IMG/VR virus record: IMGVR_UViG_3300011335_000546
DNA: 38,198 nucleotides
From: a virus
Strand: one strand, 5' to 3'
Below, piece after piece: positions 10,095 to 38,198 of the stretch. Both the position numbers and the translations under genes were made by a program. Within the stretch, counting starts at the first letter, position 1. The number at the start of each line of letters is the position of its first letter. Below the pieces are notes generated by a model, which saw nothing but the letters and a program-made list of their open reading frames with translations, searched no databases and had not been told where the DNA came from.

Positions 10095-10319
10095 TTAAAC
10101 TGGTGCAACGAATACGTCATTAACTTCATCGTAAGAGTAACCAATGCCAGCATAGATACCACGAATGTTTCCGTTGTAGGAAGTGCGAACACACTTCTGT
10201 CCACGAAAGTTTCCGTACCATTCTTCTGGACTTAAGCCCTCAATTAATTCTGTTTCGTCAATGCCAGCAATAACTTCAGTAACAATATTGTTTTTATCTA
10301 GAAATGCGTAATGTGCCAT
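10095..10319 (-). CDS. Conserved small phage protein (74 aa) associated with fibre genes
   Basis: TAATG overlap at 10317-10321 gives MAHYAFLDKNNIVTEVI... The ORF-track start at 10328 is a TTG. Confidence 0.5.
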   Translation of the reverse strand: MAHYAFLDKNNIVTEVIAGIDETELIEGLSPEEWYGNFRGQKCVRTSYNGNIRGIYAGIGYSYDEVNDVFVAPV

Positions 10320-11236
10320 TATACCCAACTCACCGTTCCCGTTCCTGCTGTAATCGTAGTTACTTTATCTGTTCCAACATCTGCGGTAGTAAGTGTTAGA
10401 CCTGTTTGTGTAATTGAAAGCAATCCACTGTAACGCAGAATGATTACGCCTGTACCACCAGGACCACCATTTGCGTTAACAACGCCTGTCTGTCCAGAAC
10501 CTGCACCACCACCTGCACCTAAATTTACAGCAGGTGCAGCAGGTGCAGCGCCAGAACCAAAAGCACCAGCATTCTGTCCGCCACCAGTACCACCAGCACC
10601 TGAACCACCACTACCATAAAAGTTACCACCACCACCACCACCAGCACGTGCTACTGCTGTTCCAGTTATTGATGAAGTTAAACCTGCACCACCGCCACCA
10701 GTACCACCAGCAATACCTGCAGAACCAGCACCACCACCACCGCCAGCGCGACCAGTACCAGCAGCAGCACCACCACCATCAGAGCCTTGATAAATAGTAC
10801 CACCACCGCCAATAATTGCAGTAGCATTATTATTGCCACCGATGCCACCACCAGAACCACCGACTAATGAAGTTGTGTAAGAACCGCCACCGCCACCAAG
10901 GGAAACAATGTTACCTATGTAAGAGTTTGAACCATTACCGCCATTACCACTAGTTCCAGCACCACCAGCACCGATAGAAACGGCGTATGAATTAGAGATA
11001 CCATCTCTCATAAAAATTTGAAGTGTATTGTCTTTCAAAGAATTGCCACCTGAAAGTTCACTACCAAATTTGCAACGGTAACCACCAGCACCACCGCCTC
11101 CGCCTCCGCTACCACCGCCAGCACCTCCTCCAGCAATTACAAGATAATCAACATTAAATCGTATAGAATTAGAAAAATTTACACTTCTTTGAAAAAGTTT
11201 GACTATACTTGATTCACTGAAAGACCTAACAGCCAC
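10319..11236 (-). CDS. Glycine-rich tail/fibre protein
   Basis: Long GGGAGG/GGSGG tracts (VIAGGGAGGGSGGGGGGAGGY...), embedded in the fibre cluster. Confidence 0.65.
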   Translation of the reverse strand: MAVRSFSESSIVKLFQRSVNFSNSIRFNVDYLVIAGGGAGGGSGGGGGGAGGYRCKFGSELSGGNSLKDNTLQIFMRDGISNSYAVSIGAGGAGTSGNGGNGSNSYIGNIVSLGGGGGSYTTSLVGGSGGGIGGNNNATAIIGGGGTIYQGSDGGGAAAGTGRAGGGGGAGSAGIAGGTGGGGAGLTSSITGTAVARAGGGGGGNFYGSGGSGAGGTGGGQNAGAFGSGAAPAAPAVNLGAGGGAGSGQTGVVNANGGPGGTGVIILRYSGLLSITQTGLTLTTADVGTDKVTTITAGTGTVSWV

Positions 11237-13997: not shown

Positions 13998-16685
13998 TTA
14001 CCTTCCTTTAGTTTCACGTGAAACGTATTGTTGCATGTATTCTTCAATAGCTTTGCGACCATCATCATTTAATTTACGAGTACCTATGCCAGCAAATGAT
14101 TTAAATTTAGGTGGAAGTCCAGATAATTTTTTAAACTTAGAGCCATCCCATACTGCCCATAACTTAACTTCTTGATCAAAAACATAAACAGGCATTTTTT
14201 TATCTATACCCATTTGAACAGCCCAACCAGTACCACCATCTACCTTGGTTCCCCCAGGAAGAATTTTACTAATAGCAACAACTGCTTCTGAATCTTTTAA
14301 TTGATAGTAATTACGACGCAATAAATTTGCAAAAGAAGATTTAGGATCAAATGGACGACCAAGAGATTTAGCAGCTTTCTTTAAAGACTCATCTGCAATT
14401 TCAAGTTGTTCTTTAGTTAATACATTAGGAGTTTCCATAGCTGGTCTATTACCAGAAACTCTATGATTTTTATAGCTATGACCAATTGTTTTAATGCTCA
14501 TAGAATCAGCAACTTCTGCCCATACAGTATCAGCACCATCAGCCATACCAGAATGCACAGTAATCTCTGAAGCATTAGATGCTTCTACTTTAGGTGCTGC
14601 CTGTAATTTATTTACAGATTCTTTAGCTGCAGTTTCTTTAGCTTCAAAACGAGCCTTACGTGCTGCATCTTCTTTAGCAAGACGAGTATCCATTCCAGCT
14701 TTTCTAGCTGCTCCCTTATCAATACCTTCTTGAAGTTTTAACTTATTAACATAGTTAAGAATTCTTTTCTTTAAAGCAGGACTTTCTGCTTGCTCTGCTA
14801 GATCATCAATAAGATCAATTAAAGCTTGTCTATTAATTGGATCTATTGGATTAGTAGCAACACGATTCATAAAGGTACGAATACCAGTATCATCAAGTTG
14901 CGGAGCAAGTTCTTTTGCTTTATCCCAAGCTTTTCCTTGCATTCCACGAAGCTTATCTAGCTCATCTCGGTATTGTTGCATACGTTTTTCATATGCTTCT
15001 ACATCTAAAGTGCCATCATCTTTTTTATATTTAGGCTTATTCTTTATTTGCTTTGCAAAATCTGGAGACTCTTTAACAAAATCTTTATTTTCTTTTGCAA
15101 GAATGTTTTCAATATGCCTTGCACGGTCAGCTACGTTTCTAGTAGTTGGCGTTCCTTTGGGGGTTGCAGGTGTACGTTTAAGGGTGATACGCAAATCTTG
15201 TACTCTAAATAATTCATCCGCTAAATCTATTTGTTCTTGTCGTGCTGCACCTCTAGGAGCAGTAAAGCCAAGTATCTTAGATCTTTCTTCGATTACTTTA
15301 CGTGCTTGCTCAACTGCTTTAGCGTATAGTTTTTGTTCAGCAGGAGTCTTAGCGTTGCGTAAATTATCCATAGAGTTTTTCAAGTCAGCTTTTAACTCGT
15401 CCATTTCAGCACGACCTGATTGGCTTGGAGCTAAACTGGTTTTCTTTGGATCAAGTTGAGGAGTAAAATCACTATCAGCTTTAAGGTTTGTACCACCTTG
15501 GAAGTTTGATTTTTCAAAGTCTATTGGGTTTTTATTTTCTGCTGCAGTTAATGCTTCGTCTTGTTTATCTATGCGCTGACGATCTTTAGATATTTCTTTA
15601 GGGCGTGGACGAAGCCGTGCAATTAACTTTTCTTCAGCAGTAGCAGGAGTTTGTTTACCAGCAGCAACTGCTGAGTAAGACATGATAGTTCCACTTGCTT
15701 CATTACCATAAACATCTTTGTAAAGTTTATTAAAGAACTTATGATTTTGTTTAAAGTAAGATTCTAAAGTTTCTAACTCAATCATAATGTCAGTAAGAGG
15801 AGTTACATTTTCTGGGTTTTCAGGATCTTTTACTAAAGACTTTTGCTCTCCACGTAAAGCTAAATTCTTTTCATCATCTTTAAGTTCTTTAGCATTCTTT
15901 TTAAAAGTTCTTGTAGTTCCTGTTTCTTTTACTTGTTGAATTAAAGTTTTGTACTGAGCAACTTTTTCTAAGTAACCATCAACAAATTGAATTGGATCTG
16001 AACCTGGACCCATATCGCTCTTGCGACCAGTACCTGCTGTAATGTTTTTAGATTCTAGGATTCCAATTTCAGCTTCAGTAGGTTCACTATAGTTACCTTT
16101 TTGCCTACCTGTTTTTCTATCAATAGTTTTATCGGTAAGATTTCTTCCTCTAAGGCTACCGCCTTCACGCTTTAATTCTGCTGCTGCTTGTTTAGTTGGA
16201 ACATTTCTTTCAACAACTTGATATGCAGGGCTACTAAGAGGTTTTACCTCAGGAGTTGGACTAGTAATATCTTCAAATCTTTTTTCACTCATTGGTCGAC
16301 TTGGAATTTCAGGCTTTAAAGTTTCACCATAAGTTAACTTTCCACGTCTAACTAACTCAGCTTCAACTTCCATTCTAGTTTTAGTTACAGCCTTAGCTAC
16401 AATAGGTAAACTATCAGTAGAAGCATTTACAACTATAGTTTCTGCTAATACTTTTCTAAGAGCTTTGTTTCCTAGTATTGCTATCTTGGCAGGTGGTATA
16501 AGAAATGTTGCTGCAGTAATACCTATTGTTGCAGCGTCTCCCCAAGTTCCATTACCCTCAGCAATGTTTTTAATTGACTTAGCACCAAACAAAAAGTCAG
16601 CAACTTCCCATGCTACACTTTTTGATTCATCAACAATGTGAGTACCACGATACTCATCTGTTGATACTGTTGTTGCGTTAGCCAT
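13998..16685 (-). CDS. 895-aa Lys/Glu-rich virion-module protein with C-terminal SLOG/DprA-like domain
   Basis: Hydrophobic N-terminal segment, about 600 aa of charged helical low complexity, and a C-terminal 188 aa with HSGMADGADTVWAEVA and DGGTGWAVQMG...PVYVFD. Confidence 0.6.
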   Translation of the reverse strand: MANATTVSTDEYRGTHIVDESKSVAWEVADFLFGAKSIKNIAEGNGTWGDAATIGITAATFLIPPAKIAILGNKALRKVLAETIVVNASTDSLPIVAKAVTKTRMEVEAELVRRGKLTYGETLKPEIPSRPMSEKRFEDITSPTPEVKPLSSPAYQVVERNVPTKQAAAELKREGGSLRGRNLTDKTIDRKTGRQKGNYSEPTEAEIGILESKNITAGTGRKSDMGPGSDPIQFVDGYLEKVAQYKTLIQQVKETGTTRTFKKNAKELKDDEKNLALRGEQKSLVKDPENPENVTPLTDIMIELETLESYFKQNHKFFNKLYKDVYGNEASGTIMSYSAVAAGKQTPATAEEKLIARLRPRPKEISKDRQRIDKQDEALTAAENKNPIDFEKSNFQGGTNLKADSDFTPQLDPKKTSLAPSQSGRAEMDELKADLKNSMDNLRNAKTPAEQKLYAKAVEQARKVIEERSKILGFTAPRGAARQEQIDLADELFRVQDLRITLKRTPATPKGTPTTRNVADRARHIENILAKENKDFVKESPDFAKQIKNKPKYKKDDGTLDVEAYEKRMQQYRDELDKLRGMQGKAWDKAKELAPQLDDTGIRTFMNRVATNPIDPINRQALIDLIDDLAEQAESPALKKRILNYVNKLKLQEGIDKGAARKAGMDTRLAKEDAARKARFEAKETAAKESVNKLQAAPKVEASNASEITVHSGMADGADTVWAEVADSMSIKTIGHSYKNHRVSGNRPAMETPNVLTKEQLEIADESLKKAAKSLGRPFDPKSSFANLLRRNYYQLKDSEAVVAISKILPGGTKVDGGTGWAVQMGIDKKMPVYVFDQEVKLWAVWDGSKFKKLSGLPPKFKSFAGIGTRKLNDDGRKAIEEYMQQYVSRETKGR

Positions 16686-18304: not shown

Positions 18305-19549
18305 CTAAGCGATACTAGAACTAGTCTCGATACGGAATAGAGCTTCGTTACGGTAGATAGCGTGTCCTAGAACACCGTACCAACCGATTGGACGCTGACG
18401 CATCAAGCGATCAACGACTGGACCAATAACTACATGTGGCTCTTCAACCACTGCTTCAGCAAGTGCTTGCTGACCAGCAAGGAAGGTACGGTATACCTTA
18501 GTTACTGGAGTTACTGTAAGGGTGGCAGTTCCAACAGTTCCAGAGTTAGCAACGCTTACAGTAAATGTAGTGTTTGTTGCTCCTACGGAGATTGCTGTGA
18601 TTCTAGCACCAGTGCCAACGTTAGTTCCAGAGATTTTGTCTCCTACCTTGGCAAGACCACCGAAAGCAGCGTTAGCTGCAACGATAGTAAATTCTCCAGA
18701 TACGCCACTAACTGCTGAAGCAGTTGCTAGTGCTGTTTGATCAGCACCATCAATAGCAGTATGTAGACGAGGAGACTCAATGAAGTAAGCACCTTCAAAC
18801 TGACCAATTTCGCCAGCCCAGATTGCATCATTGCTCTGGTACTCATGTGGATTACGCCATGAAGCAGCACCAGTTTCTGCACGTAGATCGTGAGATACTT
18901 CTGGGTGAATACCACACCAGTACAGTGATCCCTTACGAGCATTCGTCTTGTTAGCACGTAACTTAGCTACTGCACGACGGATATCAGCAGCAGAAATGCT
19001 ATCTTCTGCAGCTACTGTTACAGTGCTTGTTGGAGTTGAAGCTCCAGCAGTACCATAAATTACGTTAGTACCTGTAAGTAGAGCAGTCTGAGCTAGATCA
19101 TCAATGCTATCAGCCATGTTGAAGGCAATGATGTTAGCAACAGCAGGATCTACGTCAGCAAGTGATAGAAGACCAAGCTTCTTAGTAACCAAAGTTGAGT
19201 TACCATATTCATTTACGGTAACGTTAACAATGGTTGGAGTACCAAGTGCTACTGCTGTTGGGTCAACTTCTTCAGAAAGAACTGAAGTAGCCTTTGCCAT
19301 GTCTGCATAGATCTGCAGAGCAACAGATGAACCTGGCATAGCCTGACGAGCAGGCTTCTTGTCTGCTACAGAACGTAGCAATGGGGTAGCACGTAGTTCA
19401 AATTCAATAAGGCGATCGTATGCCTTCTGAACTAAACCAGCACCATTAGATGGGGTGAATGTTCCAGTGTTGGACGCACCTGAGTACGCACCACCACCGA
19501 GACCGCCGTTAGTTGCGGCAGTACCACCCGATAAGCCTGTTATAGCCAT
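18305..19549 (-). CDS. Major capsid protein (HK97 fold) with an insertion domain
   Basis: 414 aa directly after the scaffold gene. Capsid-like sequence pattern (DPTAVALGTPTIVNVTVNEYGNSTLVTKKL..., C-terminal RPIGWYGVLGHAIYRNEALFRIE). Highest-GC, strongly biased codons. Confidence 0.8.
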   Translation of the reverse strand: MAITGLSGGTAATNGGLGGGAYSGASNTGTFTPSNGAGLVQKAYDRLIEFELRATPLLRSVADKKPARQAMPGSSVALQIYADMAKATSVLSEEVDPTAVALGTPTIVNVTVNEYGNSTLVTKKLGLLSLADVDPAVANIIAFNMADSIDDLAQTALLTGTNVIYGTAGASTPTSTVTVAAEDSISAADIRRAVAKLRANKTNARKGSLYWCGIHPEVSHDLRAETGAASWRNPHEYQSNDAIWAGEIGQFEGAYFIESPRLHTAIDGADQTALATASAVSGVSGEFTIVAANAAFGGLAKVGDKISGTNVGTGARITAISVGATNTTFTVSVANSGTVGTATLTVTPVTKVYRTFLAGQQALAEAVVEEPHVVIGPVVDRLMRQRPIGWYGVLGHAIYRNEALFRIETSSSIA

Positions 19550-19577: not shown

Positions 19578-20048
19578 TTACGAATCTGCACCATAAATCA
19601 TTTCCAATAATTCTGCGGCACTCTGAGCGTTATTAATACGTGAGAACGTATCATTAACATCATCAGGAGAAAGAGCGAAGTTTGTTGCAGCATCAATTTG
19701 TCGCAGTGCATTTAGATTTTCTTGATCTACCATAGACCGCTGTTTTTGTGGCTGAACTCCAAAGACTTCTCCATGTTCATCCAACCATTGACCAATAGAT
19801 TCTGAATCATTGGCTATATCTGATGGAATAAATGTAGCAATCTTAGGATTAACTCCTCTTTCATTTAGAACGGAACTAACGACAGACTGACGCTGAAAGT
19901 TACGTAGACCTTCTAACTCAGTTTCTAGTTCCTTAATACGCTTAGACTTTGCACGGTCAGCTTTACGTAGATTTGTTAATCCACTAGTCTGATCTTCTTC
20001 TTCTGAGAAGTCGTCGTCATCGTCGTACCATTCATTGTTGTTACTCAT
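19578..20048 (-). CDS. Scaffolding protein
   Basis: 156 aa with acidic N-terminus (DDDDDFSEEED) and helical/coiled-coil character, immediately upstream of the capsid gene. Confidence 0.6.
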   Translation of the reverse strand: MSNNNEWYDDDDDFSEEEDQTSGLTNLRKADRAKSKRIKELETELEGLRNFQRQSVVSSVLNERGVNPKIATFIPSDIANDSESIGQWLDEHGEVFGVQPQKQRSMVDQENLNALRQIDAATNFALSPDDVNDTFSRINNAQSAAELLEMIYGADS

Positions 20049-23459: not shown

Positions 23460-26400
23460 TTACCCATTCCTATTAACTCCAGCACGACCATCTCGTGATT
23501 TAGCATTCATTAGTTTTGATAATCCGTAGTTGTAATACTGTTCAATAGTTTTAGTATTATCAGAACGGATAAGTTCTTTAATAGCAGCTTCTGCTGCTGC
23601 TTTTTCATCTCGCTTTAAATCAGATCCATTAGCTGCTTCAAGTGAATCAATGTATGCAGCTTGCTTCATAAACCTTGAATAGATGTCATAGGCTTGAGCA
23701 ATTTTAAGTTTAAGATCTTGAGGTATATCAGCATTAGGCGACATTGCATAGTTATAAGCATTATTAGCGAACTCATAAGCAGCAGTATTATCTAAACCAC
23801 TAGCCATATGCTGTTCAAGACCAGGAACTTGCATCTTAATTAGTGCACGTTGCTGTTGATATTTTTCTACAACTGCTCGACGTTCGGCAACAAAGCTAAA
23901 TGGAAGTGGCTTAAGTTCAGCAGCTTCCTTGTCACCTAAATCGTAGTATGCATTAACATGTTCTTGCATAATAACTCTATTAAAGTAGGCATCTATGTCT
24001 ACGTTCTGTGCTATACCAGCAGCAGTAGCCCATTGCCATACACCAGGACTAAAATCACCATTGCCAGGAGCAAACAGTAGTGCACCTGCACCATACTGAT
24101 CAACGTCTTCTTGGTTTTTAATAGTCCAGTTTTGCATGTCGGTACTAAACTTAAGAATTGGTTGAATTTCTTTAGACTTTTTAGATACAAGGTATGCAAT
24201 TTTGCCTGGATTATCACCCATCCATGTAGCTAAAGCCATCTCATATGGATCGTTAGCATCTGGATACTTGTTCTTTATCTCATCCAGCACATCATAGAAT
24301 GTTTCCTGCATAGATACTACGCCTGAATCAAGCATGTACTCAGGTAGATCCTTATTACCCTTAAGTTGTACGGACATAGGAAGAACCATTCCTAGTAGTG
24401 CACGTGTAACAACAATATTGTGTGCGCTAATACGTGTGTTCTTTAGGTATTCCATCTTGTCTGCTTCAAACAAGGCAGTGTCTATAGTGCCATCTGACAT
24501 TATGTACTTAGGATCTTTTGGATTAACACCGTAACCATTTGCTTGATTGTAGCTAATAGCCTGTGTAAGAGCTGAAACTTCTTGTGTAGATTTCTCATCA
24601 GTACTTAGCATGCTCCAAATGTTACGTGCAAACTTAGGAGTAACTGCATTGTAGAGAGTTACATTATCGCCAAGACTACCCATTAAAGTATTATCTAAAT
24701 CTTCTGCAAGGTTCTTTGTTGGATCAAACTTACCAAGCAATGCTTTGCTAGCAAGAATAGATAACGAAGCCATTGGACCTGAAAGGTATGGCATACCAGC
24801 ATCAGTCTGGAATGAAGGGTTACCAGCAGTTAAGTTAAATGTAATGTTATTAAATAAAGGTTGCTTCATGCTTTCAGTGTTGCCAGTTAATGTACGAATA
24901 GTACTATCAACTGCACTGTAGATAACATCATCCATAGGCAAGATTACATATGCTTGACCGTTTGGATCTGTATGTACTTCACCTACTGCATCAAAACCTT
25001 GATTCATTAATCGCAAACGATAGATAGTCTGAAGTGGGTAATCTTTAGTTAAGCGATACATACGGCGATGGAAGTCTTCAACCGCACGATAGAAACGACC
25101 GACAGTTCGCATGTTATAAGCAAATACAGTTTGCATTGCAGGGTTATCAGAGAACTTAAGTACATGTTGGGTAGCATCATTTATGGCTTTATTGCCAAAC
25201 ACTTTAGCTGCCTGTTGTTTTGAGTTTTTATCAATTGTAGCTAATGCTTTATCATTAAGAACTTTACCCTGATCTTCAAGTTCTTTAACACGACTATTGT
25301 AAAGATCGTTAGCCATCTTTATTTCGCCAGCCTGGTATTGCTCACGGAAAGCAAGATAATGCATAGTGACTACTGGTTGACGCATAATGTTGTCAGTTTG
25401 ACGAGCCATTAAATCAAAGGCTTTATCTTGACCATGTTCACGAATCCAAGTTGCAAGATCAGTGTGTACACCATCAAAGTCAAGGTCAGTCATTACTCTG
25501 CCTTCAGTTTTAAATCCTTTAGTTAATTCTCTGTAATCATCAAAGGTTAGTGAACGCAAACTCTTGCGATGATCAGTAACTCCGCCACGCCTTAAATCAT
25601 CAAAGTGTTTTATTAACTTTGGATTGTATTGTAATGGTCCACCATGAAAAGCATTGTAAGTGTCTTTTAGACCAGCAGTAACAAACTCAAACATTTTATC
25701 GCCATCGTCTGCAAGATCTTTATAACTATCAAAAAATCTTGTGCTATCCATAAAAGTTTTAACATTATCTGCTTCACCAGTAGCAATAATGTAACGACCT
25801 TCACCATTTTTAATAAAACCAAATAGACTCATTAACTGTCTAGAAGCTTTTTGAAAATCATCTGCATCAAAAATGCCATTATGTTGTAAGAATACAGAAG
25901 CAAAACTAAATGTACGATCTTCACCATATTTAGTTTCAAATGTAAATCCACGATCATTGAAGATACGAGTAAAGTTATCAAACATAGTGATATCAATATC
26001 AGAATCTGACATATCTCTAGTGTCAACTGCACGGATAGAGCCCTTAGGTGCGACACCGAGAGCATCCATTGAAATGTCTACTTGACCTTTATCTAAAAGT
26101 ACTGGTGTAGACATAGCATCTGCACGACCAAGTGCAGCAGCATTTACGTTACGACTAGATACATCGCGTAAAACATTTGGATTGTCAATAATAAGTTCGC
26201 GCATCCATTGTTTTTGAACTGGATCTAACTTACGACCACGGCGCATAATAGCAATGTCAACTAATCTAGCACGAACAAGTTCATCAATTTCATACTGAGG
26301 CTTTTTTTTGTTTTGTTTTTCAATGCCTTTACGTATTGCAATGCGTTGTTCTTGGTTAATATCTCGTACTGCACCAAATTCACGACCAAGTGCTTTACCT

Positions 26401-28628
26401 AAAGCAATTTGAATACCATTTTTAATTGGACCAACGGCAGATAAATCACCAGTTGCTGAAGCTTGAATTTTATTAAACTTACGAGCAGCACCATAGTTTT
26501 TAACTAATGCACCATTAGCATACATTAAGAACATAAAGCCTTCATCAATTGCAGTACGAATACCCAACTGAGGAACAAGAGTAAGAGTTGTCCACAAATC
26601 TGTAGCAATACCAGTAACTCTATGATTATATGCTCCACCAATTACTTGTGGAATGTATTCAATTAGTTTCTTGTCACCTCTATTGAGTGATCTACTAGCA
26701 GCAAATTCAGAGATTGCTCGCCAGTCTGGTGCAGTTACATAATTCTGAAACTGGCTAGCATGTAAAGGACCAGTTGCAGCAATTGATCTACCCTGAGCAA
26801 GACCAAAGCTTTCAGGTATTGGTGCATCATCTAATACTTCCCAAGTTTTTTTATTACCAAAATGAGCATCAAGAGCTTTCTGAATAAACTCTTCTCCACC
26901 ATCCATGCCATGAATACCAGCACGACGCATGTTTAATTCAAAGATAGAACGATGCATTGCAAATCGGTCAGCTTGACTGGATCTCAAGAAATCCATAGTA
27001 GCAACTTCAGCTAGATCGCGACGACCAAATGCAAGAAATGCTTGCTTACGAAATACATCAGCAGTTTTAGATACGTTTGCATCATCATGATAAACAATAG
27101 AACGACCAGGATGCAACTGTACTTGTTGTTGAATAAATTTTTGTAAAAAGTTTTGTTGTTTCTGTGCTTTGATTTCAACACCAGTTACATTATCACTTAA
27201 AAGTTTTGGTCGAAGATCTGCATATTCAATTGGAGTTTCGTTGTAATCTACTTTGCCAGTAAAAAATTCGCGAGTACGCTCTTTTACTTTCATCGTAAAT
27301 TCTCTAGAAGACTTTACGTGATCTGCTCCATTAATTGCATAAGTTTTATCCACTGTGCGACCACGAACAAATTTAGTAAATGCTCCAGTTTCATCGCCAG
27401 TAAATTGACGAACAAGACTTGGAAGATCTGTTACACCTAGTTCTGACCAGAATTCAATTTCTTCTTCAGTGCCATGAGCAGGAGATGCTTTTTGAATATC
27501 TTGAATAGCTTTATTCATTGCAGCTGGATCATTAAGTTCTTTGGCTTTTGTGTACTCGCCAATACCTTTAGTGTATCTATCAAATACTGGAGCAACATCA
27601 GGACGTGCAAGATACATAGGTACATCATCGCCAGTCTTAATTAAAGCAGCAAGTTTTTCAGCCTTACTTGCTCCCTTAGCAATAGTAGAAGTACCAAGAG
27701 TTAAATAAGTTAGTGGATCTGCAAAGATTTGATAAGCTAAATCAATAGCACCAGTACCAAATGAAAACAATTTAGGATTATCTTCTGCTTTAATGCCAAG
27801 AGTATTGTTTAAAAATCTACCAATGTTTCTACCTGGAGATAGCCGCGCTCTAGAAAATTCATCAACCATTACACCAAAGGCTTCTGGTTCATTAAACATA
27901 GAGTTAATTGCAGTTAAGATAGCAGTATCGTTGGGACCCCAAGCATCAATAATTTCTCCTGGAGTATCACCAGCAAGAACGTGCATAGCTACAAAGCTTT
28001 CAGCTCCGCCATATTTATTAACTAATTCATCTGATACTGATTCATCATAAAGATATTTACCATCAAAAGATTTATCAAAGTTAGCACGAGTCCAGAATGA
28101 CTCACGGTTAATAATTGAATTCTGAGCCATGTTGCCAATGGTATTAAATGCTTTACCGTATTGCGCTCCAGCTTCCATAAGAAAACGAAACGGACTTTTA
28201 ATTACATCGCCAACAGACAAACCATCATCAAGACCTAAAACTTTTCTAAACGTTTCATTCTGAATAATTGCACCATTGTCTGGTTTATTTGCATAGTCAA
28301 TTTTATAATAAGTTTTTAGTACTTCTTGCATTCCAGGTTCAAGTTTATTAAATTCTTGTCCTGCTTGACTACCACGCATACGCATAAGTTTTTCATGCGT
28401 AGTTTTAATACCTGACCAGTTTTCAATTAAGTTTTTTTCTTCACGAGTTAAAGCCGTACGTGCACCTGCAGCGTAAAGAGCAGGGCTAACATTTGCAACG
28501 TTTGCATCTAACTTGCGAATAGCAGCACTAGAAGGATCATTTGGAGTATTAACAAAAGGAGTGGCTAACTCTGGAGTGTATGCTGCAAAGCTTGGCGAAG
28601 CTCCAGCAAATTCAGGTTGGACTGTCAC
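23460..28628 (-). CDS. Giant protein (1722 aa) of unknown function in the head/virion module
   Basis: Uninterrupted 5.2-kb ORF (13.6 percent of the genome). Its ATG overlaps the upstream stop by 1 nt. No catalytic motif recognised by eye. Confidence 0.8.
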   Translation of the reverse strand: MTVQPEFAGASPSFAAYTPELATPFVNTPNDPSSAAIRKLDANVANVSPALYAAGARTALTREEKNLIENWSGIKTTHEKLMRMRGSQAGQEFNKLEPGMQEVLKTYYKIDYANKPDNGAIIQNETFRKVLGLDDGLSVGDVIKSPFRFLMEAGAQYGKAFNTIGNMAQNSIINRESFWTRANFDKSFDGKYLYDESVSDELVNKYGGAESFVAMHVLAGDTPGEIIDAWGPNDTAILTAINSMFNEPEAFGVMVDEFSRARLSPGRNIGRFLNNTLGIKAEDNPKLFSFGTGAIDLAYQIFADPLTYLTLGTSTIAKGASKAEKLAALIKTGDDVPMYLARPDVAPVFDRYTKGIGEYTKAKELNDPAAMNKAIQDIQKASPAHGTEEEIEFWSELGVTDLPSLVRQFTGDETGAFTKFVRGRTVDKTYAINGADHVKSSREFTMKVKERTREFFTGKVDYNETPIEYADLRPKLLSDNVTGVEIKAQKQQNFLQKFIQQQVQLHPGRSIVYHDDANVSKTADVFRKQAFLAFGRRDLAEVATMDFLRSSQADRFAMHRSIFELNMRRAGIHGMDGGEEFIQKALDAHFGNKKTWEVLDDAPIPESFGLAQGRSIAATGPLHASQFQNYVTAPDWRAISEFAASRSLNRGDKKLIEYIPQVIGGAYNHRVTGIATDLWTTLTLVPQLGIRTAIDEGFMFLMYANGALVKNYGAARKFNKIQASATGDLSAVGPIKNGIQIALGKALGREFGAVRDINQEQRIAIRKGIEKQNKKKPQYEIDELVRARLVDIAIMRRGRKLDPVQKQWMRELIIDNPNVLRDVSSRNVNAAALGRADAMSTPVLLDKGQVDISMDALGVAPKGSIRAVDTRDMSDSDIDITMFDNFTRIFNDRGFTFETKYGEDRTFSFASVFLQHNGIFDADDFQKASRQLMSLFGFIKNGEGRYIIATGEADNVKTFMDSTRFFDSYKDLADDGDKMFEFVTAGLKDTYNAFHGGPLQYNPKLIKHFDDLRRGGVTDHRKSLRSLTFDDYRELTKGFKTEGRVMTDLDFDGVHTDLATWIREHGQDKAFDLMARQTDNIMRQPVVTMHYLAFREQYQAGEIKMANDLYNSRVKELEDQGKVLNDKALATIDKNSKQQAAKVFGNKAINDATQHVLKFSDNPAMQTVFAYNMRTVGRFYRAVEDFHRRMYRLTKDYPLQTIYRLRLMNQGFDAVGEVHTDPNGQAYVILPMDDVIYSAVDSTIRTLTGNTESMKQPLFNNITFNLTAGNPSFQTDAGMPYLSGPMASLSILASKALLGKFDPTKNLAEDLDNTLMGSLGDNVTLYNAVTPKFARNIWSMLSTDEKSTQEVSALTQAISYNQANGYGVNPKDPKYIMSDGTIDTALFEADKMEYLKNTRISAHNIVVTRALLGMVLPMSVQLKGNKDLPEYMLDSGVVSMQETFYDVLDEIKNKYPDANDPYEMALATWMGDNPGKIAYLVSKKSKEIQPILKFSTDMQNWTIKNQEDVDQYGAGALLFAPGNGDFSPGVWQWATAAGIAQNVDIDAYFNRVIMQEHVNAYYDLGDKEAAELKPLPFSFVAERRAVVEKYQQQRALIKMQVPGLEQHMASGLDNTAAYEFANNAYNYAMSPNADIPQDLKLKIAQAYDIYSRFMKQAAYIDSLEAANGSDLKRDEKAAAEAAIKELIRSDNTKTIEQYYNYGLSKLMNAKSRDGRAGVNRNG

Positions 28629-29029
28629 TAAAAGATACCCTTGCTTTGCATCTCTCGCAATATCATTTCTACTTCACCTGATGGATCACTTTGAGATAGC
28701 CGAGTAAGAATTTGCGTAGGATTAAATGTTCGTGCTGGAAGATTCAAGGACTCTGGACCAGGACCCTCACCCATTGGGTTACCAGCAGTAACTGGTTCAT
28801 TTGGATTTTGAGTTGGATCAAATAATCCAGCAACAGGAGGTGGAGTTGGAACTGGTTGTGCTTTAGCCATTGGAGCACCAGACATAATTTCTTGAGTAGC
28901 TTTGCGATCACCGTAAACGTTAGGATCACTATTAACCATATCAGTACGTTGAGATAGAGCACCTGGACCTGATACTGGTTTAGGTTGACTATTGGTACGA
29001 ACTGGTCGCTTACCGCCCTGCTGTGCCAT
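28628..29029 (-). CDS. Pro/Gly-rich, probably disordered protein (133 aa)
   Basis: PVPTPPPVAGLFDPTQNPNEPVTAGNPMGEGPGPES. Lies between the Ntn peptidase and the giant ORF. Confidence 0.55.
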   Translation of the reverse strand: MAQQGGKRPVRTNSQPKPVSGPGALSQRTDMVNSDPNVYGDRKATQEIMSGAPMAKAQPVPTPPPVAGLFDPTQNPNEPVTAGNPMGEGPGPESLNLPARTFNPTQILTRLSQSDPSGEVEMILREMQSKGIF

Positions 29030-29030
29030 G

Positions 29031-29546
29031 TCATTCTCCTCGTCTGATTATCTGGATCTTTCCTCCAGAATTAATATCAAGTTTAATTGCAATTTTCATT
29101 GCTTCTTCTACGGTTGCACCAGCATGTAATGCGCCAAGTGCCCAGTTACCACCAGTACCCATTGCGTACATTTTGCTATCAGTACGTAAAACTGAATAAT
29201 CTTCACAGATGTAAAACAATTTATTTTCTAGTCCAACTAGAAAGATTGCACCATCATCATCATCTTTAAGGACGTAACCTGTTTCTTCATGTACTTTACG
29301 CATTGCTGGTATAAATTTTGAAACCATAAACTTGTACAAGTTAGTACCATCATAAACTGGTGGATCCCAACCATAAGTTACTATATCGCAATAGCGACTA
29401 GTACCAGCACCGCATATAACATACTCGCCAACTTCAACTATCTTTGGTACTTCTTTGCTTATGTAAGCGCGTTCACCTTCAGTGGTCTGACTATCTGCAG
29501 CAAGAATAAAACCTTTTTTAGTTTCTACGCCTACTATTGTTGTCAT
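29031..29546 (-). CDS. HslV / proteasome beta-subunit-like Ntn threonine peptidase
   Basis: MTTIVGV N-terminus (Thr1 after Met removal), Asp17 (AADSQ), Lys34 (VPKIV) and YAMGTGGNWALGAL (the GSGG-equivalent loop). 171 aa. Its ATG overlaps the portal stop. Confidence 0.75.
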   Translation of the reverse strand: MTTIVGVETKKGFILAADSQTTEGERAYISKEVPKIVEVGEYVICGAGTSRYCDIVTYGWDPPVYDGTNLYKFMVSKFIPAMRKVHEETGYVLKDDDDGAIFLVGLENKLFYICEDYSVLRTDSKMYAMGTGGNWALGALHAGATVEEAMKIAIKLDINSGGKIQIIRRGE

Positions 29547-31288
29547 GCACCGCCACCGAGACGAGCTAAAATACTAGCCACATCTGGTGGTGGTCCTGCT
29601 GGTTGTCCTGCTTGTTGTTCTGGTCCAGGTGGCATAGGTGGTTGCATTCCTGGAGGAGCCATAGGTTGTTCTGGCATTCCTGGAGCTTCTTCTACTTCGG
29701 CTTCTTCTTTCTTAAAGATTTGCATAACGGCATCTTCAATAGAAGTGCCCCTTTTTTTCATGTCAATTACCGTAGCAATCTTTTCAATGATCTCTGAAGG
29801 ATCTGCTCCATTAGAAGCCATCTGGGGAATTGCTTGAGTTAATGCTCCAATAGAACCAGACAGAGCATCTCGCATTCGCTCAATGTCAATGCGATCCTTT
29901 TCAAGACCAACGTTCATGCTCCAAGGTAACTCACTCATTACAAATTCACGAGATAGCAATCCAGCCTGCAAAGCTTGAAGCGAGAAAATAAGGGCACGGG
30001 ATGGATCAAGTCCAGCCATAACACCGTAGCGAACCTGAATGCTGTAATCATTCTTAATATCTTTAGAAGGCTTGTAACTAATTTCGTATGGCGCACCTTG
30101 ATAGATGCCAGCCATTGTCTTATCTTCGTCAAACAAAGTCTGATCGACATGGAAACAAAGTTCCATAACCTTCTTAAAGGTTTCAGCAAGGATTTGCTGT
30201 CCAGCCTTTATTTGCGAATCAAAGCCGCCAAGAAGTGCTTGAACTCCAGAACCTGTAATAATAGACGCATCAATATTTCCTGATCTTCCTTCAGGGTAGC
30301 GAGCACCCATACGCATTTCTTGCTCTAGCAACTGCTGTTCAGTAAATGCACCAGTAGGTAACTCAAGGGCTACACGGCGTACACCAGCAGGATTGTTTGT
30401 GCGAATAACTGAGTCAGGACCAAAGGCAAATTCAGATACGTCATTAGGTAGAACTAGTGGAGCTTGTACAGATTTTTCTGCAGCTTCCATAGCCAGCAAG
30501 CTAAAGCGAGCACGAGCAATCTGTGCCCACAGTACGTCATCAAACTGACCACGTGGGTCATCTAGATCAAGTCCAGGACGACGTGCAACTATAACCGAAA
30601 GCATTCCAATTGGATTCTTAGCCTTACGAAGAACTAAATTGCCACGTTGAGGTAAGAAAAGAACTACCTGATCAGGATCTTCATAGCGCATTAGTTCCAT
30701 TGCACTGTCGTAGTCAGTCAGTTCCCGACCAAGATTTCCAATAATTAAGTTTTCATACTCAGGAAAATCAACGATTAGTTCACGAATTGTTTTCATGTAC
30801 TTTTTTGTAAATGATATACAGCGACCAAAACGATCAAACTCTGGATAAGAACCCATTGGATTCTCAATGCGGATATGTGGCATCTTTTCGTCAAAGTTAG
30901 CATCAACAAAGATTGGAAGGAAACCATAGGTCAAGTACCAGTCAGCACCTGTGTACATCTGAGTCTGAAGGCTAGAAAATTCAACGTAGTTGTTAGCAAT
31001 AATGGTTCGCTTGTCAGAGAACTTCTTTGCCTTATCCGAGTTAATACTTGGAGTTGAGCAGTTAAAAGAAGGAAGTGGCGCAAGAACTTCAGCAATGTCA
31101 CGAGCAGCAACGTCAACAAAGTTGGCAATCATTGGCTTGGACATGCCCTCTGGGAACATATCTGGATACACGGATTCCATGTTGCCACGACGTACAGCAG
31201 TAATATCTACCATACGTTGATCACGTGCACCATAGCGACGTGTAAGAGCTAATACCTTATTGGTAATCTGCTCGCTTGATAATGCCAT
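29543..31288 (-). CDS. Portal protein
   Basis: 581 aa directly after the terminase gene. Size and synteny fit. C-terminal Pro/Gly/Gln-rich tail (PGMPEQPMAPPGMQPPMPPGPEQQAGQPAGPPP). Confidence 0.7.
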   Translation of the reverse strand: MALSSEQITNKVLALTRRYGARDQRMVDITAVRRGNMESVYPDMFPEGMSKPMIANFVDVAARDIAEVLAPLPSFNCSTPSINSDKAKKFSDKRTIIANNYVEFSSLQTQMYTGADWYLTYGFLPIFVDANFDEKMPHIRIENPMGSYPEFDRFGRCISFTKKYMKTIRELIVDFPEYENLIIGNLGRELTDYDSAMELMRYEDPDQVVLFLPQRGNLVLRKAKNPIGMLSVIVARRPGLDLDDPRGQFDDVLWAQIARARFSLLAMEAAEKSVQAPLVLPNDVSEFAFGPDSVIRTNNPAGVRRVALELPTGAFTEQQLLEQEMRMGARYPEGRSGNIDASIITGSGVQALLGGFDSQIKAGQQILAETFKKVMELCFHVDQTLFDEDKTMAGIYQGAPYEISYKPSKDIKNDYSIQVRYGVMAGLDPSRALIFSLQALQAGLLSREFVMSELPWSMNVGLEKDRIDIERMRDALSGSIGALTQAIPQMASNGADPSEIIEKIATVIDMKKRGTSIEDAVMQIFKKEEAEVEEAPGMPEQPMAPPGMQPPMPPGPEQQAGQPAGPPPDVASILARLGGGA

Positions 31289-31296
31289 TTAATTTC

Positions 31297-33189
31297 CTAG
31301 TATAGAGCTGACAATGATTCCATCGCCATCTCATCAAGGTTAATAACACCTTGCATAGCAACGTTTCTTCTTGTTGCCCACTTGTTATTGGCGTGAGCCG
31401 TTCTGAAATTACTTTGTTGAATTAGTTCTTTTGCCCTGATCTCACAGAACCACAGTGCCATAACGCAGTCAGTTGGTCCTCTAGTATCAGCCTTCCAAGT
31501 AATTAACTGGTTAACTAAAGCCTTAACGTGTTCATTGGAGTTATCAGGAATCTCCATAAGGTTATCCTTACTGAACTTTCCATCTCGCATACTGCCAAAC
31601 AATGAGGACATCGCAGCTACACCGTAGTTAACATCCCACTTATTCTTGCTGGTGAAGTGTTCGCGTAGCGCAGTACCACGACTTGCAAGCCACATACGCA
31701 GCTCAGAGTCAAGGGCAAAAGCTTTCTGATAAGCATTGATCTCAATGCGAAGCTCTTGGGGCTGGTACTCTACCACCCATTCTTTGATTAAACTATCAAT
31801 CTTCTGTGGCGTAGATTCAGCCATGTTGTAAACATCAAGCACATATCGCTTATGCGTATCTCGGTTAACTGCAAGCACAACCATAGCGGTCTTGCCTGAG
31901 ATTGCGGGATCAAGCCCCATAATAACAAACCAAGAACCTGCAGCGTTAGGGTGTCCTGGCGCATTAAAGTTCAGCTTGCCCACTTTACGCATACGGTTAA
32001 TCGAACCGTTAACAATGGGTAGGGGAAAGATTGCGTCTTCTTCGACATCTTGCTGTTGATAAACAAGTGCCCACGTGGAGGGACTGACTTCGCTACGGCG
32101 ATCAAACAGACGCTTACCGTCCCACTTTACAAAGTGCCCGTTTTCATCGGGTGTAAGCAACTCTGGATCATCAAACTCGTCAGCCCCATCCAGCGGTCTA
32201 TCAGACCTAGCCCAAAGCGTTTTCCACTTTGCTGGCTTATCGTCAAACTCAAGTACGGCTGGCATGGCTAGGTATGTGAAAGGCGACCTGCCACCAGTCC
32301 AGTGTTCTGGATTTCTTATTTCTTTATATAGATCTATAGAGGAAACTCTAGTCCCTGCAATCAGGAGCGTCCCAGTCGAACCCACACGGGTAACGACCAT
32401 CTTCTGCAACCAGTTGAGTTGCTTCTCCCATTCGTGCGCGTTTGTCGTTGAGACAATATCGTCCATGATGATTAGATCCGCACGAGTACCGTAAATCTGC
32501 TGTCCAATACCAAGAGCTTGAACCGTCGGGTCCTTCTCCCCTGACTCTCTTTCGAGATAGATTCTGTCTGCAGTCCATTGGTCTGATGTCTCCTTGTAGC
32601 CCCCTGAGGGACCGTAGACCTGTTGCATCTTGAGCCACGGCTCTTCAGTCATGCGCTGCTTTAGGGAGTACAAGAATTCCTTGGCGCGGGTCTGAGTCTG
32701 AGATATGAGCACAATGCGAATATTGGGGTTCATGGCAATTTTGTACATTGCGTAGTTAACCGTCATTGTGGTTGATTTGGCATGCTCAGGTGGAACGTTG
32801 ATCAAGAGCCTACGTCGGCTACCTGGCTCGTAGGTCATGGAAGGGTGTTGCCACGTCGGGTCGTGACCCTCAAGAACGTCAATCCAGTTTTGCTGATGAG
32901 GGAATACCTCGGTGTTCAGGAACTCTCTGGAGAACGTGGCAAAATCAATTTTATGTTTATTCTCGCCTAGTGATGCGGCGATGGCATCGGATCCAAAATT
33001 GGTGGCTTCCTCAACCTGCGCGGCGAATTCCCCATCTAGGAGCCAAGATCGGAGGGAGGTCTTTTTCTTCCCCACGGCAGCAAGAGCGGAATCCATATCA
33101 ATGCCCTGCTTAAGAAAAGAAATAAACTTTCTCTGATCTTCAACTTGCCGAAGTCTGGTGTGATGTAGTTCTCCAGCTTTAGCAGCCAT
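31297..33189 (-). CDS. terL: Terminase large subunit with N-terminal HTH extension
   Basis: Walker A-like PPEHAKSTT, Walker B LIIMDDIV, LLIAGTRV coupling motif and C-terminal nuclease region starting VIMGLDPA. The first ~70 aa (FLKQGIDMDSALAAVGKKKTSLRSWLLDGEFAAQVEEA) look like a small-terminase-type HTH. Confidence 0.85.
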   Translation of the reverse strand: MAAKAGELHHTRLRQVEDQRKFISFLKQGIDMDSALAAVGKKKTSLRSWLLDGEFAAQVEEATNFGSDAIAASLGENKHKIDFATFSREFLNTEVFPHQQNWIDVLEGHDPTWQHPSMTYEPGSRRRLLINVPPEHAKSTTMTVNYAMYKIAMNPNIRIVLISQTQTRAKEFLYSLKQRMTEEPWLKMQQVYGPSGGYKETSDQWTADRIYLERESGEKDPTVQALGIGQQIYGTRADLIIMDDIVSTTNAHEWEKQLNWLQKMVVTRVGSTGTLLIAGTRVSSIDLYKEIRNPEHWTGGRSPFTYLAMPAVLEFDDKPAKWKTLWARSDRPLDGADEFDDPELLTPDENGHFVKWDGKRLFDRRSEVSPSTWALVYQQQDVEEDAIFPLPIVNGSINRMRKVGKLNFNAPGHPNAAGSWFVIMGLDPAISGKTAMVVLAVNRDTHKRYVLDVYNMAESTPQKIDSLIKEWVVEYQPQELRIEINAYQKAFALDSELRMWLASRGTALREHFTSKNKWDVNYGVAAMSSLFGSMRDGKFSKDNLMEIPDNSNEHVKALVNQLITWKADTRGPTDCVMALWFCEIRAKELIQQSNFRTAHANNKWATRRNVAMQGVINLDEMAMESLSALY

Positions 33190-37111: not shown

Positions 37112-37428
37112 TGGGAATCAAGGAAGAACCGTGGTTTGAACACCCATTTGATTGGTACGAGAAAGAAAACTATCCAGAAATTGTAGGCATACAACTAACA
37201 GAAGGTGTCGCACTGGATTTTCTTCAAGCACTATATCAAATATACAAACTACTAGAACGCAATGACAACAAGAAAGCAATGGCAGATGCAGAAGAACTAG
37301 CAGTACTGCTATTAGCTAGTGCATTTAATTATGCAGAAGAAGCAATGGACGAACTAGTTATCAAAGAAGTAGGAAGTATGGACATAGACGCTGCATTTGC
37401 AGAGATGGTAGAGGAACAGAATGGCTAA
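37111..37428 (+). CDS. Strongly acidic hypothetical protein (105 aa)
   Basis: TAATG overlap. Glu/Asp-rich helical sequence. Confidence 0.55.
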   Translation: MGIKEEPWFEHPFDWYEKENYPEIVGIQLTEGVALDFLQALYQIYKLLERNDNKKAMADAEELAVLLLASAFNYAEEAMDELVIKEVGSMDIDAAFAEMVEEQNG

Positions 37429-38198
37429 TCAAAATCCATTTAGTATTATAGGTACACACTGTGAGTACGAAGTTAACACAGCACACGACCTAATGGAACA
37501 AGCAAAACTCAATTGGAATGTAACACTAGAATCTATTTACATTAATCCATACGAGCAGATTGAAGTACCTGATAGGTATGCAACAGTCAAATGGTTAGCA
37601 GGAGAAGCAAACCCACTAGCAGTAGTAGGTTCACGATACAAAGTAATGCAGAACAGTGAGATCTTTTCATGCCTTGACGACATCGTTAGTAATAGCGATG
37701 CACGTTACGGTGCAGCAGGAGAACTTAAAGGTGGCAACGTAGTATGGGCAACCATTGAACTACCAGCTAACATCACAGTTGGAGATGATCCACACAATGC
37801 ATATGTAATCGCACGTACATCACATGATGGTAGTACACCATTCCAGATGACACCAGTTATCAACCGATTGAACTGTACTAATCAGATCAATGCAGCCATG
37901 ATGAGTGGTAAGAAGAAAGGCATCTACTACCGTGTTAAGCATAGCCCAAACAGTAGTATAAATGTAAATGAAATCAGAGAAGCATTCAAGATTATGAATG
38001 AAGATGTTCAGAAATATGCAACAGTATCTTCATACCTACGTTCAATTGAATTCAGTAACGAAGAGTTCAAGAACTTTATCAAGCGAGTGTATCCATTACC
38101 AAGCAAGGTAGAGTTCTCACCTTATGACATGCTCAGTGCAGGTGAACGTACAGCTAAGACAAGAGCAGACCACAGTAGAGGTGTTGCATGGAACGTAT
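37421..38198 (+). CDS. DUF932-family protein, N-terminal part (continues at 1..315)
   Basis: ATG 37421 overlaps the previous stop (ATGGCTAA). Hand translation MANQNPFSIIG...VVGSRYKVMQN...VIARTSHDGSTPFQMTPVINRLNCTNQI fits the DUF932 pattern. The frame is open to the window end. Confidence 0.7.
   Translation, partial: MANQNPFSIIGTHCEYEVNTAHDLMEQAKLNWNVTLESIYINPYEQIEVPDRYATVKWLAGEANPLAVVGSRYKVMQNSEIFSCLDDIVSNSDARYGAAGELKGGNVVWATIELPANITVGDDPHNAYVIARTSHDGSTPFQMTPVINRLNCTNQINAAMMSGKKKGIYYRVKHSPNSSINVNEIREAFKIMNEDVQKYATVSSYLRSIEFSNEEFKNFIKRVYPLPSKVEFSPYDMLSAGERTAKTRADHSRGVAWNV
38072..38198. repeat. Terminal direct repeat, identical to 1..127
   Basis: Exact identity read directly. Confidence 0.95.

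Follow-up and report, generated by a model that had tools for sequence, protein, structure and literature searches.

Proteasome-like peptidases of the compact "group I" radiate around BPH and include HslV, BPH, AAH, CPH, and PPH. Typical members are ~170–200 aa long, rely on the catalytic set Thr1/Asp17/Lys33, and carry no propeptide, whereas PPH are shorter (~140 aa). In 2021, Fuchs, Alva and Lupas listed PPH, AAH, and CPH (named representatives WP_042125023.1, WP_035979212, and WP_008185288) as phage-borne group I homologs without an assigned function, and AAH borne by actinophages are not found in that catalogue (PMC8665760). Phage proteins labeled "peptidase HslV family" are gathered in PHROG 1040, with members in Escherichia phage phAPEC8 (gp175), Shewanella phage 1/4, and Klebsiella and Arthrobacter phages; they have the Ntn fold and no HslU partner. 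Our literature search found neither a functional study of any phage homolog of the proteasome or HslV nor a report of such a homolog serving as a prohead protease. The canonical prohead proteases (HK97 gp4/S78, ClpP-like S14, U35, T4 gp21/S80, and herpesvirus assemblin) are of unrelated fold and catalytic type, but are likewise encoded just downstream of the portal gene in the head operon.

Here we analyze a group I-like gene that occupies this position in a freshwater actinobacterial phage. A preliminary description of the locus proposed that a self-compartmentalizing threonine peptidase had been recruited there as the maturation protease of the head. The fold assignment as such is already public (PHROG 1040, JGI names, and GenBank labels). 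What is new is that in acI-type actinophages the peptidase gene is a conserved but dispensable cassette, which alternates with a gene for an acidic protein of ~82 aa and moves between the head and replication modules.

Genomic context of the peptidase gene

The window, that is, the whole stretch of 38,198 nucleotides analyzed (IMG/VR record IMGVR_UViG_3300011335_000546), has no near-identical DNA among deposited phages, as judged from a megablast search with 20 kb of its sequence. Closest to it among deposited phages come OX376640 and OX376641, with 56% identity in the portal and 66% in the capsid, taken to be Planktophila phages LanE43AprE7 and LanE43AprF5 (hereafter E7 and F5). These two, which belong to the "G2 actinophage" family, were the first phages of acI freshwater actinobacteria ("Ca. 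Nanopelagicales") to be brought into culture (PMC10202952). E7 and F5 resemble the window in genome size (~39 kb), in module order, and in having an HslV-like gene (36–37% identical) directly after the portal gene. Streptomyces podophages (subfamily Beephvirinae) are more distant, their portal being 44–45% identical and their capsid ~52–55% identical over the aligned part. Several of the metagenomic relatives encode WhiB.

On the minus strand, the genes for the large terminase and the portal are followed by those for the peptidase, a 133-aa protein, a giant protein of 1722 aa, proteins of 419, 403, and 272 aa, a scaffold-like protein of 156 aa, and the capsid (Table 1). The giant gene, which is abutted by the 133-aa gene, is found at the same position in all relatives (1555–1845 aa in the metagenomic ones, ~1645 aa in Beephvirinae). 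The peptidase ORF translates into a protein starting with MTTIVGV, so that TTIVGV follows Met1, and its start codon overlaps the stop codon of the portal gene, both as first described. The initial impression that the genome encodes no recognizable canonical prohead protease is also borne out: Pfam scans of all predicted genes detected no S78, S14, U35, S80, or assemblin domain, and the peptidase itself has no match to the known prohead protease families S78, S14, U35, S80, and S21 in Pfam, PHROG, or NCBIfam. The statement that the gene sits "exactly" in the slot of a portal-protease-scaffold-capsid module does not hold, because five genes, the giant one included, separate it from the scaffold-like gene, with the capsid gene lying beyond.

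Table 1 Features of the head module and of the peptidase gene in the window
Feature	Coordinates	Strand	Evidence and remarks
Large terminase gene (630 aa)	31297..33189	-	phrog_38 (E = 4.9e-64), PF17289
Portal protein gene (581 aa), upstream neighbor	29543..31288	-	PHROG 104 (E = 3e-22); 44–45% identical to annotated Beephvirinae portals
Overlap (ATGA) of peptidase start codon and portal stop codon	29543..29546	-	Peptidase ATG 29546-29544, portal stop codon 29545-29543; translational coupling; read in the sequence
Gene for a putative group I proteasome-like (HslV/BPH-like) N-terminal-threonine peptidase (171 aa)	29031..29546	-	ORF, PF00227, PHROG 1040, AlphaFold2, Foldseek, dN/dS
Thr2 codon	29541..29543	-	Would provide the N-terminal nucleophile Thr1 once the initiator Met is removed; aligns with Thr1 of HslV and BPH
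Asp18 codon (GAT)	29493..29495	-	Equivalent of HslV/proteasome Asp17; aligned to Asp17 of HslV/BPH
Lys35 codon (AAG)	29442..29444	-	Equivalent of HslV/proteasome Lys33; aligned to the catalytic Lys
Gly130-Thr131-Gly132-Gly133 loop	29148..29159	-	Equivalent of the HslV G-S-G-G loop and the 20S beta Ser129 region; aligned to IGSGG of HslV and BPH
Downstream cassette junction	29027..29033	-	Peptidase stop codon TGA 29033-29031, 1-nt spacer, ATG of the 133-aa gene 29029-29027
Gene for the Pro-rich 133-aa protein, downstream neighbor	28628..29029	-	phrog_8200; conserved out to Immanuel3 gp07
Gene for the 1722-aa giant protein, probable internal virion protein	23460..28628	-	No domain match
Gene for the 156-aa scaffold-like protein	19578..20048	-	phrog_7813; weakly similar to the scaffold families phrog_3760 and PF14265
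Major capsid protein gene (414 aa)	18305..19549	-	phrog_1357 (E = 7.5e-76), PF13252

Fold and active site of the peptidase

The protein is matched by the Pfam family PF00227 (Proteasome) with 38.2 bits (cut-off 22.4), the alignment being confined to the N-terminal 46 residues, and by PHROG 1040 ("peptidase HslV family") over residues 1–169 (E = 9.5e-34). When a profile of 48 homologs was compared with PDB sequences, Thermotoga HslV (1m4y; 5e-13) and BPH (1e-12) were aligned over the full length, with Thr2, Asp18, Lys35, and the G-S/T-G motif of the family facing Thr1, Asp17, Lys33, and the GSG loop of HslV and BPH. The AlphaFold2 model built on the homolog alignment (pLDDT 94.1, pTM 0.89) displays the alpha-beta-beta-alpha sandwich of the Ntn fold. 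Its best PDB match in a Foldseek search is BPH (5ovs; E = 1.3e-11, TM 0.77–0.79), followed by 20S beta subunits and HslV; the search gave 1100 PDB matches at E ≤ 1e-3, and each of the 50 listed belongs to one of these three groups. Predicted viral structures with the same fold are common across phages (TM up to 0.89). Genuine matches in a PDB search with the single sequence were proteasome beta subunits and BPH; the dTor designed helical-repeat proteins at the top of that search are spurious, one helix (residues 136–160) having been matched repeatedly. No relative was found in cellular GTDB genomes by a single-protein scan, a search of low sensitivity that constitutes weak evidence.

Across the 48 homologs (29–89% identity), Thr2, Lys35, Gly130, and Gly132 are invariant, and among the homolog rows listed, position 18 is Asp or Glu and position 131 is Ser or Thr. 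An MTT start is present in 43 of the 48 carrier loci, and at least four of the other five have an alternative start codon followed by Thr (Thr-Thr in loci L009, L135, L143, and L003, the last from phAPEC8; Thr-Val in L122). Strong purifying selection acts on the gene (dN/dS 0.05–0.11). Thus, the initial reading of the protein as an HslV/proteasome-beta-like Ntn peptidase of HslV size (171 aa), with Thr1, Asp17, the catalytic Lys, and the GTGG loop at the HslV positions, is upheld by family profiles and by comparison with HslV, 20S beta, and BPH structures, and the nucleophile is conserved in all 48 homologs. Three features that define the superfamily (PF00227, MEROPS T1) are present: a family HMM score above threshold, the Ntn fold, and the Thr/Asp/Lys/Gly-Ser/Thr-Gly set. 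This agreement is far beyond what a chance motif match could produce, and we regard the assignment of fold and active site as nearly certain. From the intact catalytic set, the fold matches, and the purifying selection, we conclude that the locus was described correctly and that the enzyme is very likely to be active.

Some proteasome homologs, such as connectase, are not proteases (PMC8665760), which raises the question of whether the phage protein could have lost catalysis or proteolysis, serving as a structural pseudo-enzyme or as a ligase-like enzyme in the manner of connectase. We consider this extremely unlikely: all catalytic residues are either invariant or conservatively replaced in the 48 homologs, purifying selection on the gene is strong, and BPH, HslV, and active beta subunits are closer in fold than connectase.

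The similarity to HslV (ClpQ) extends to size, fold, Met-Thr start, catalytic residues, and the GSGG-type loop. However, the scores against the HslV equivalog models of NCBIfam are far below the cut-offs (NF003964, 27.1 bits versus 137; TIGR03692, 25.9 versus 157.75), and a Pfam search of all window genes found no HslU/Clp-type AAA+ unfoldase, a DnaB-like helicase being the sole P-loop ATPase. On both counts, sequence comparison indicates that the peptidase is not an ortholog of the HslV of HslUV. Its length, catalytic set, lack of a propeptide, and closeness to BPH fit a compact group I proteasome-like homolog; BPH, the best structural match, is only 21–23% identical, and a length of 171 aa argues against PPH. 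PHROG 1040 proteins are 29–37% identical to the peptidase. The clade of the window's peptidase is borne by actinophages, in contrast to the catalogued AAH, and the acI-type actinophage group is missing from the AAH phage set of 2021.

Distribution of the peptidase gene among related head modules

Using the portal protein, we gathered 80 IMG/VR loci (64–97% identity), 74 of which contain both the portal gene and a homolog of the 133-aa gene. The peptidase gene lies between the two in 33 of these 74 loci. In the other 41, a conserved, acidic-tailed ORF of 79–83 aa (hereafter the ~82-aa ORF) fills the same interval; its copy in locus L032 is cut short at 44 aa. This ORF is absent from the window. 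Most of the closest relatives, with portals 88–94% identical, are among the non-carriers. The ~82-aa ORF is not a decayed remnant of the peptidase, given blastp E-values above 0.2 and a family HMM score of about 0 bits. It keeps the identical 4-nt overlap with the portal stop codon, and the coupling is therefore a property of the slot and not of the peptidase gene.

The replacement is precise. Between the window and a non-carrier relative, DNA homology is lost exactly at the portal stop codon and regained where the 133-aa gene begins. A genome-sized contig of 39,383 bp (L029 and L094) is colinear with the window and has closely related head proteins (terminase 93%, portal 91%, scaffold-like protein 83%, capsid 84%, and 133-aa protein 77% identical), but contains no member of the HslV family in any of the six frames. 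Six-frame HMM scans of this contig and five partly covered contigs detected no hidden copy of the peptidase in non-carriers. The same holds at greater distance: Beephvirinae share with the window the portal, the 133-aa homolog (Immanuel3 gp07), the giant, the scaffold-like protein, and the capsid, whereas three other small ORFs take the place of the peptidase gene between the portal gene and gp07. The left 24 kb of the two Beephvirinae records examined contain no gene annotated as a prohead protease.

These patterns bear directly on the proposal that the peptidase is a prohead maturation protease, packaged with the scaffold and cleaving the scaffold, the capsid N-terminus, the 133-aa protein, or the giant protein. 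The gene does immediately follow the portal gene, with which it is translationally coupled, this adjacency is kept in many relatives, and no predicted gene of the window encodes a protease of the S78, S14, U35, or S80 type. However, a prohead protease should be conserved together with the head module, and this one is missing from 41 of the 74 loci, from the 39.4-kb relative whose head proteins are 83–93% identical, and from Beephvirinae, an unrelated small gene standing in its place in the first two cases. It further differs from the canonical enzymes in its distance of five genes from the scaffold-like gene, with the capsid gene farther still, and in that all 171 residues belong to the Ntn fold, as seen in the alignment and the AlphaFold2 model, leaving no added tail that could target it to the capsid. 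Accordingly, the interval after the portal gene is a variable accessory slot, and it is highly probable that the peptidase is an accessory gene rather than an obligatory head protease. The comparative evidence indicates that no dedicated protease takes part in the assembly of this head module, so that the lack of a canonical one is best read as a module needing none. Heads of P22- and T7-like phages are also assembled without a dedicated protease.

Candidate substrates in carriers and non-carriers

The capsid N-terminus, the adjacent 133-aa protein, and the 1722-aa protein had been put forward as likely substrates. We looked for co-variation of each of them with the peptidase gene and found none. 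The Gly-rich N-terminus of the capsid is essentially identical in carriers and non-carriers, and it is shorter in some of the distant carriers; thus, the propeptide co-variation that accompanies canonical prohead proteases is lacking. The alleles of the 133-aa and giant genes assort independently of the peptidase gene: those of the window type occur with it in L013 and without it in L017, L018, L019, L023, and L064, while in L014 the peptidase gene lies beside a giant-protein allele just 52% identical. These observations weigh against the three proteins as dedicated substrates and, with them, against a role in head maturation.

Peptidase genes outside the head module

Family members are not confined to the vicinity of the portal gene. 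In three loci from phages of the same family (L135, L143, and L122; helicase 69–77% identical), the peptidase gene lies directly downstream of the DnaB-like helicase gene, that is, in the replication module and on the early-gene strand. These members use a GTG start codon; the next two residues are Thr-Thr in L135 and L143 and Thr-Val in L122, which is divergent. Homologs from other actinophages (33–37% identical) are encoded next to Prim-Pol or among genes for RecA, DNA polymerase, WhiB, SSB, and CHAP proteins, and those of phAPEC8 and DSL-LC01 are in non-structural regions, in contrast to the late-operon position directly after the portal gene that is seen in the window. In one of these other actinophages (locus L006), the homolog co-occurs with a Peptidase_S78_2 protein that is encoded next to the portal and Mu-F genes. 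Portal-adjacent and non-structural members are interleaved in a simple neighbor-joining tree without support values, which is only suggestive of repeated relocation of the gene between modules. On the other hand, portal-adjacent members have kept their place and their tight coupling over protein identities ranging from 98% to about 37%, implying a long residence in the late operon. Portal synteny is kept in many relatives and replaced by a location in replication or non-structural regions in others.

The placement of family members in replication and early modules, and the co-occurrence of one of them with an S78 protease, are further difficulties for a prohead protease. The slot preceding the 133-aa and giant genes holds either the peptidase gene or the ~82-aa gene, and the peptidase gene may instead reside in the replication module; hence, it does not belong to the head-assembly machinery. 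Taken together, the presence/absence pattern in these sequences largely refutes the prohead-protease proposal, and we consider it very unlikely to be correct.

A different role in the virion would be easier to reconcile with dispensability. Expressed late and coupled to the portal, the peptidase could be an optional cargo, packaged with the internal proteins, which it would either trim or accompany into the cell, being ejected to attack host proteins as the next infection begins; in its strongest form, this proposal amounts to a facultative head-maturation protease that has been replaced in some lineages. The gene would be co-transcribed with the portal, 133-aa, and giant genes, the last encoding a probable internal protein, through overlapping or 1-nt junctions. 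As a dispensable cargo gene it could be swapped for another, as the alternative ~82-aa cassette in the same coupled slot and the other small ORFs between the portal gene and the 133-aa homolog of Beephvirinae might suggest. However, the peptidase gene of sister phages belongs to the replication module and is read from the early-gene strand, an unexpected location if the product is packaged; no targeting extension is present, and a barrel of 12–14 subunits would have to unfold for ejection. We therefore regard a cargo role as unlikely.

Discussion

Our results retain one half of the original proposal and dispense with the other. The fold, the catalytic residues, the size, and the coupling to the portal gene all stand; recruitment of the enzyme as a maturation protease is contradicted by the comparative evidence, which is better accommodated by the alternative that had been mentioned in passing, namely degradation of host proteins after infection. 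The overall explanation that we find probable is an accessory group I proteasome-like peptidase cassette acting in the infected cell. Sister phages carry the gene in the early or replication region, where it would be expressed accordingly, and the head module can do without it; the most parsimonious reading is therefore a proteolytic function in the infected cell. For the more specific claim of cytoplasmic, infection-directed proteolysis, the balance tips only slightly in favor.

The oligomeric state, the substrates, and the cellular role of the peptidase we infer by analogy with HslV and BPH. Removal of the initiator Met by methionine aminopeptidase would expose Thr1 as the nucleophile, which would be assisted by Asp17, Lys34 (mature numbering), and the Gly-Thr-Gly loop. 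The subunits would probably assemble into a pair of stacked rings like that of HslV and BPH, and unfolded proteins or peptides would be cut within the ring chamber. The outcome may be bulk turnover of host proteins, yielding amino acids for salvage in a streamlined host, or the removal of particular host or defense proteins, possibly with the help of a host unfoldase. Bulk turnover fits the remark of the isolators of E7 and F5, who name "degradation of the host's ... proteins" among the annotated functions (PMC10202952).

Several considerations count against action in the infected cell. The late structural operon is an odd home for an enzyme of host takeover, and the lack of a canonical head protease in the genome also weighs against an accessory peptidase. 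HslV-type barrels are usually weak proteases on their own, and the window encodes no HslU-like AAA+ protein.

A threonine-type prohead protease would, if real, have been a new solution to capsid maturation, and a packaged peptidase would be the first threonine-protease cargo of a virion; for the former, the evidence says otherwise. Rejecting the head-protease role prevents a misannotation that the position of the gene invites. In phages that infect acI ("Ca. Nanopelagicales"), the most abundant actinobacteria of fresh water, a proteasome-like peptidase emerges instead as a cassette that is common and strongly conserved yet dispensable, with amino-acid salvage in a streamlined host and counter-defense as candidate roles. 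With E7 and F5, two phages of the lineage are in culture, so that what a viral proteasome homolog does is open to direct testing, and the gene described here represents an entry point to the function of these homologs rather than a new class of capsid protease.

An alternative gene in the post-portal slot

In 41 of the 74 portal-anchored related loci, all of which carry the portal gene and a homologue of the 133-aa protein, the position directly after the portal gene, occupied in the window by the HslV/proteasome-like peptidase gene, is filled by a conserved 79–83-aa protein with an acidic-run C-terminus (e.g. ...ENDFNYEEEEED); the copy in one of these, L032, is cut to 44 aa. The small ORF overlaps the portal stop by 4 nt, identically to the peptidase gene. 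The two genes are mutually exclusive in all loci examined. The acidic-tailed protein has no Pfam match and is missing from the window.

In the distant actinophage L006, the HslV-like gene adjoins WhiB, and the portal and Mu-F genes there are adjoined by a gene for a 642-aa protein matching both Hva1_TUDOR and Peptidase_S78_2. This protein may be a prohead protease fused to a scaffold or capsid protein. WhiB is reported for all members of the family of the cultured Planktophila phages LanE43AprE7 and F5 (PMC10202952) and is encoded by the relatives L004 and L007, unlike the scanned window genes: no WhiB domain was found in any of them (Pfam, E ≤ 0.01), the scan covering ORFs of at least 45 aa and all but a few intergenic stretches.

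Coordinates of the features discussed (L-numbers, loci of metagenomic relatives)
Feature	Locus	Coordinates	Strand
Peptidase gene (post-portal slot)	window	29031-29546	-
79–83-aa acidic-tailed ORF, slot equivalent	L019	8302-8553	
79–83-aa acidic-tailed ORF, slot equivalent	L016	5821-6069	
79–83-aa acidic-tailed ORF, slot equivalent	L063	7831-8070	
79–83-aa acidic-tailed ORF, slot equivalent	L088	4842-5093	
642-aa protein	L006	15475-17403	
305-aa Gly-run protein	window	10319-11236	-
895-aa protein	window	13998-16685	-
414-aa capsid protein	window	18305-19549	-
1722-aa giant ORF	window	23460-28628	-
DUF932-domain ORF	window	37412-38198	+

Structural proteins, window end and the giant gene

The capsid protein carries a Gly/Thr/Val-rich insertion of ~80 aa (residues ~270-352), which may be a surface decoration domain. 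It is missing from the 336-aa capsids of the close relatives L007 and L084 and from those of the more distant Beephvirinae (320 aa), whereas the 399-aa capsid of phage F5 aligns continuously through this region. Residues ~704-837, in the C-terminal part of the 895-aa protein of the structural region, match phrog_768 (E = 2.7e-9), a DprA-like DNA recombination-mediator family; proteins of virion modules do not usually contain such a domain. Among tail-fibre-like genes lies that of the 305-aa protein, composed mostly of Gly runs (PF21722 Gly_rich_2, E = 1e-10); the colinear relative L029+L094 has no counterpart.

Because the DUF932-domain ORF (E = 1.5e-34) overruns the right end, the window (38.2 kb versus 39.2-40.6 kb for relatives) probably ends inside a gene or represents a permuted genome.

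The giant protein has no Pfam or PHROG match and no detected sequence similarity to that of Beephvirinae (~1645 aa); a giant gene occupies the equivalent position in all relatives, as far as Beephvirinae, with products of 1555-1845 aa in the metagenomic ones. Its rate of evolution is far above that of the adjoining genes: identity is 59% where the portal has 88-94%, and in other loci with the same portal range the N-terminal 600 aa show 44-58%. Its alleles are discrete and reassort among relatives.
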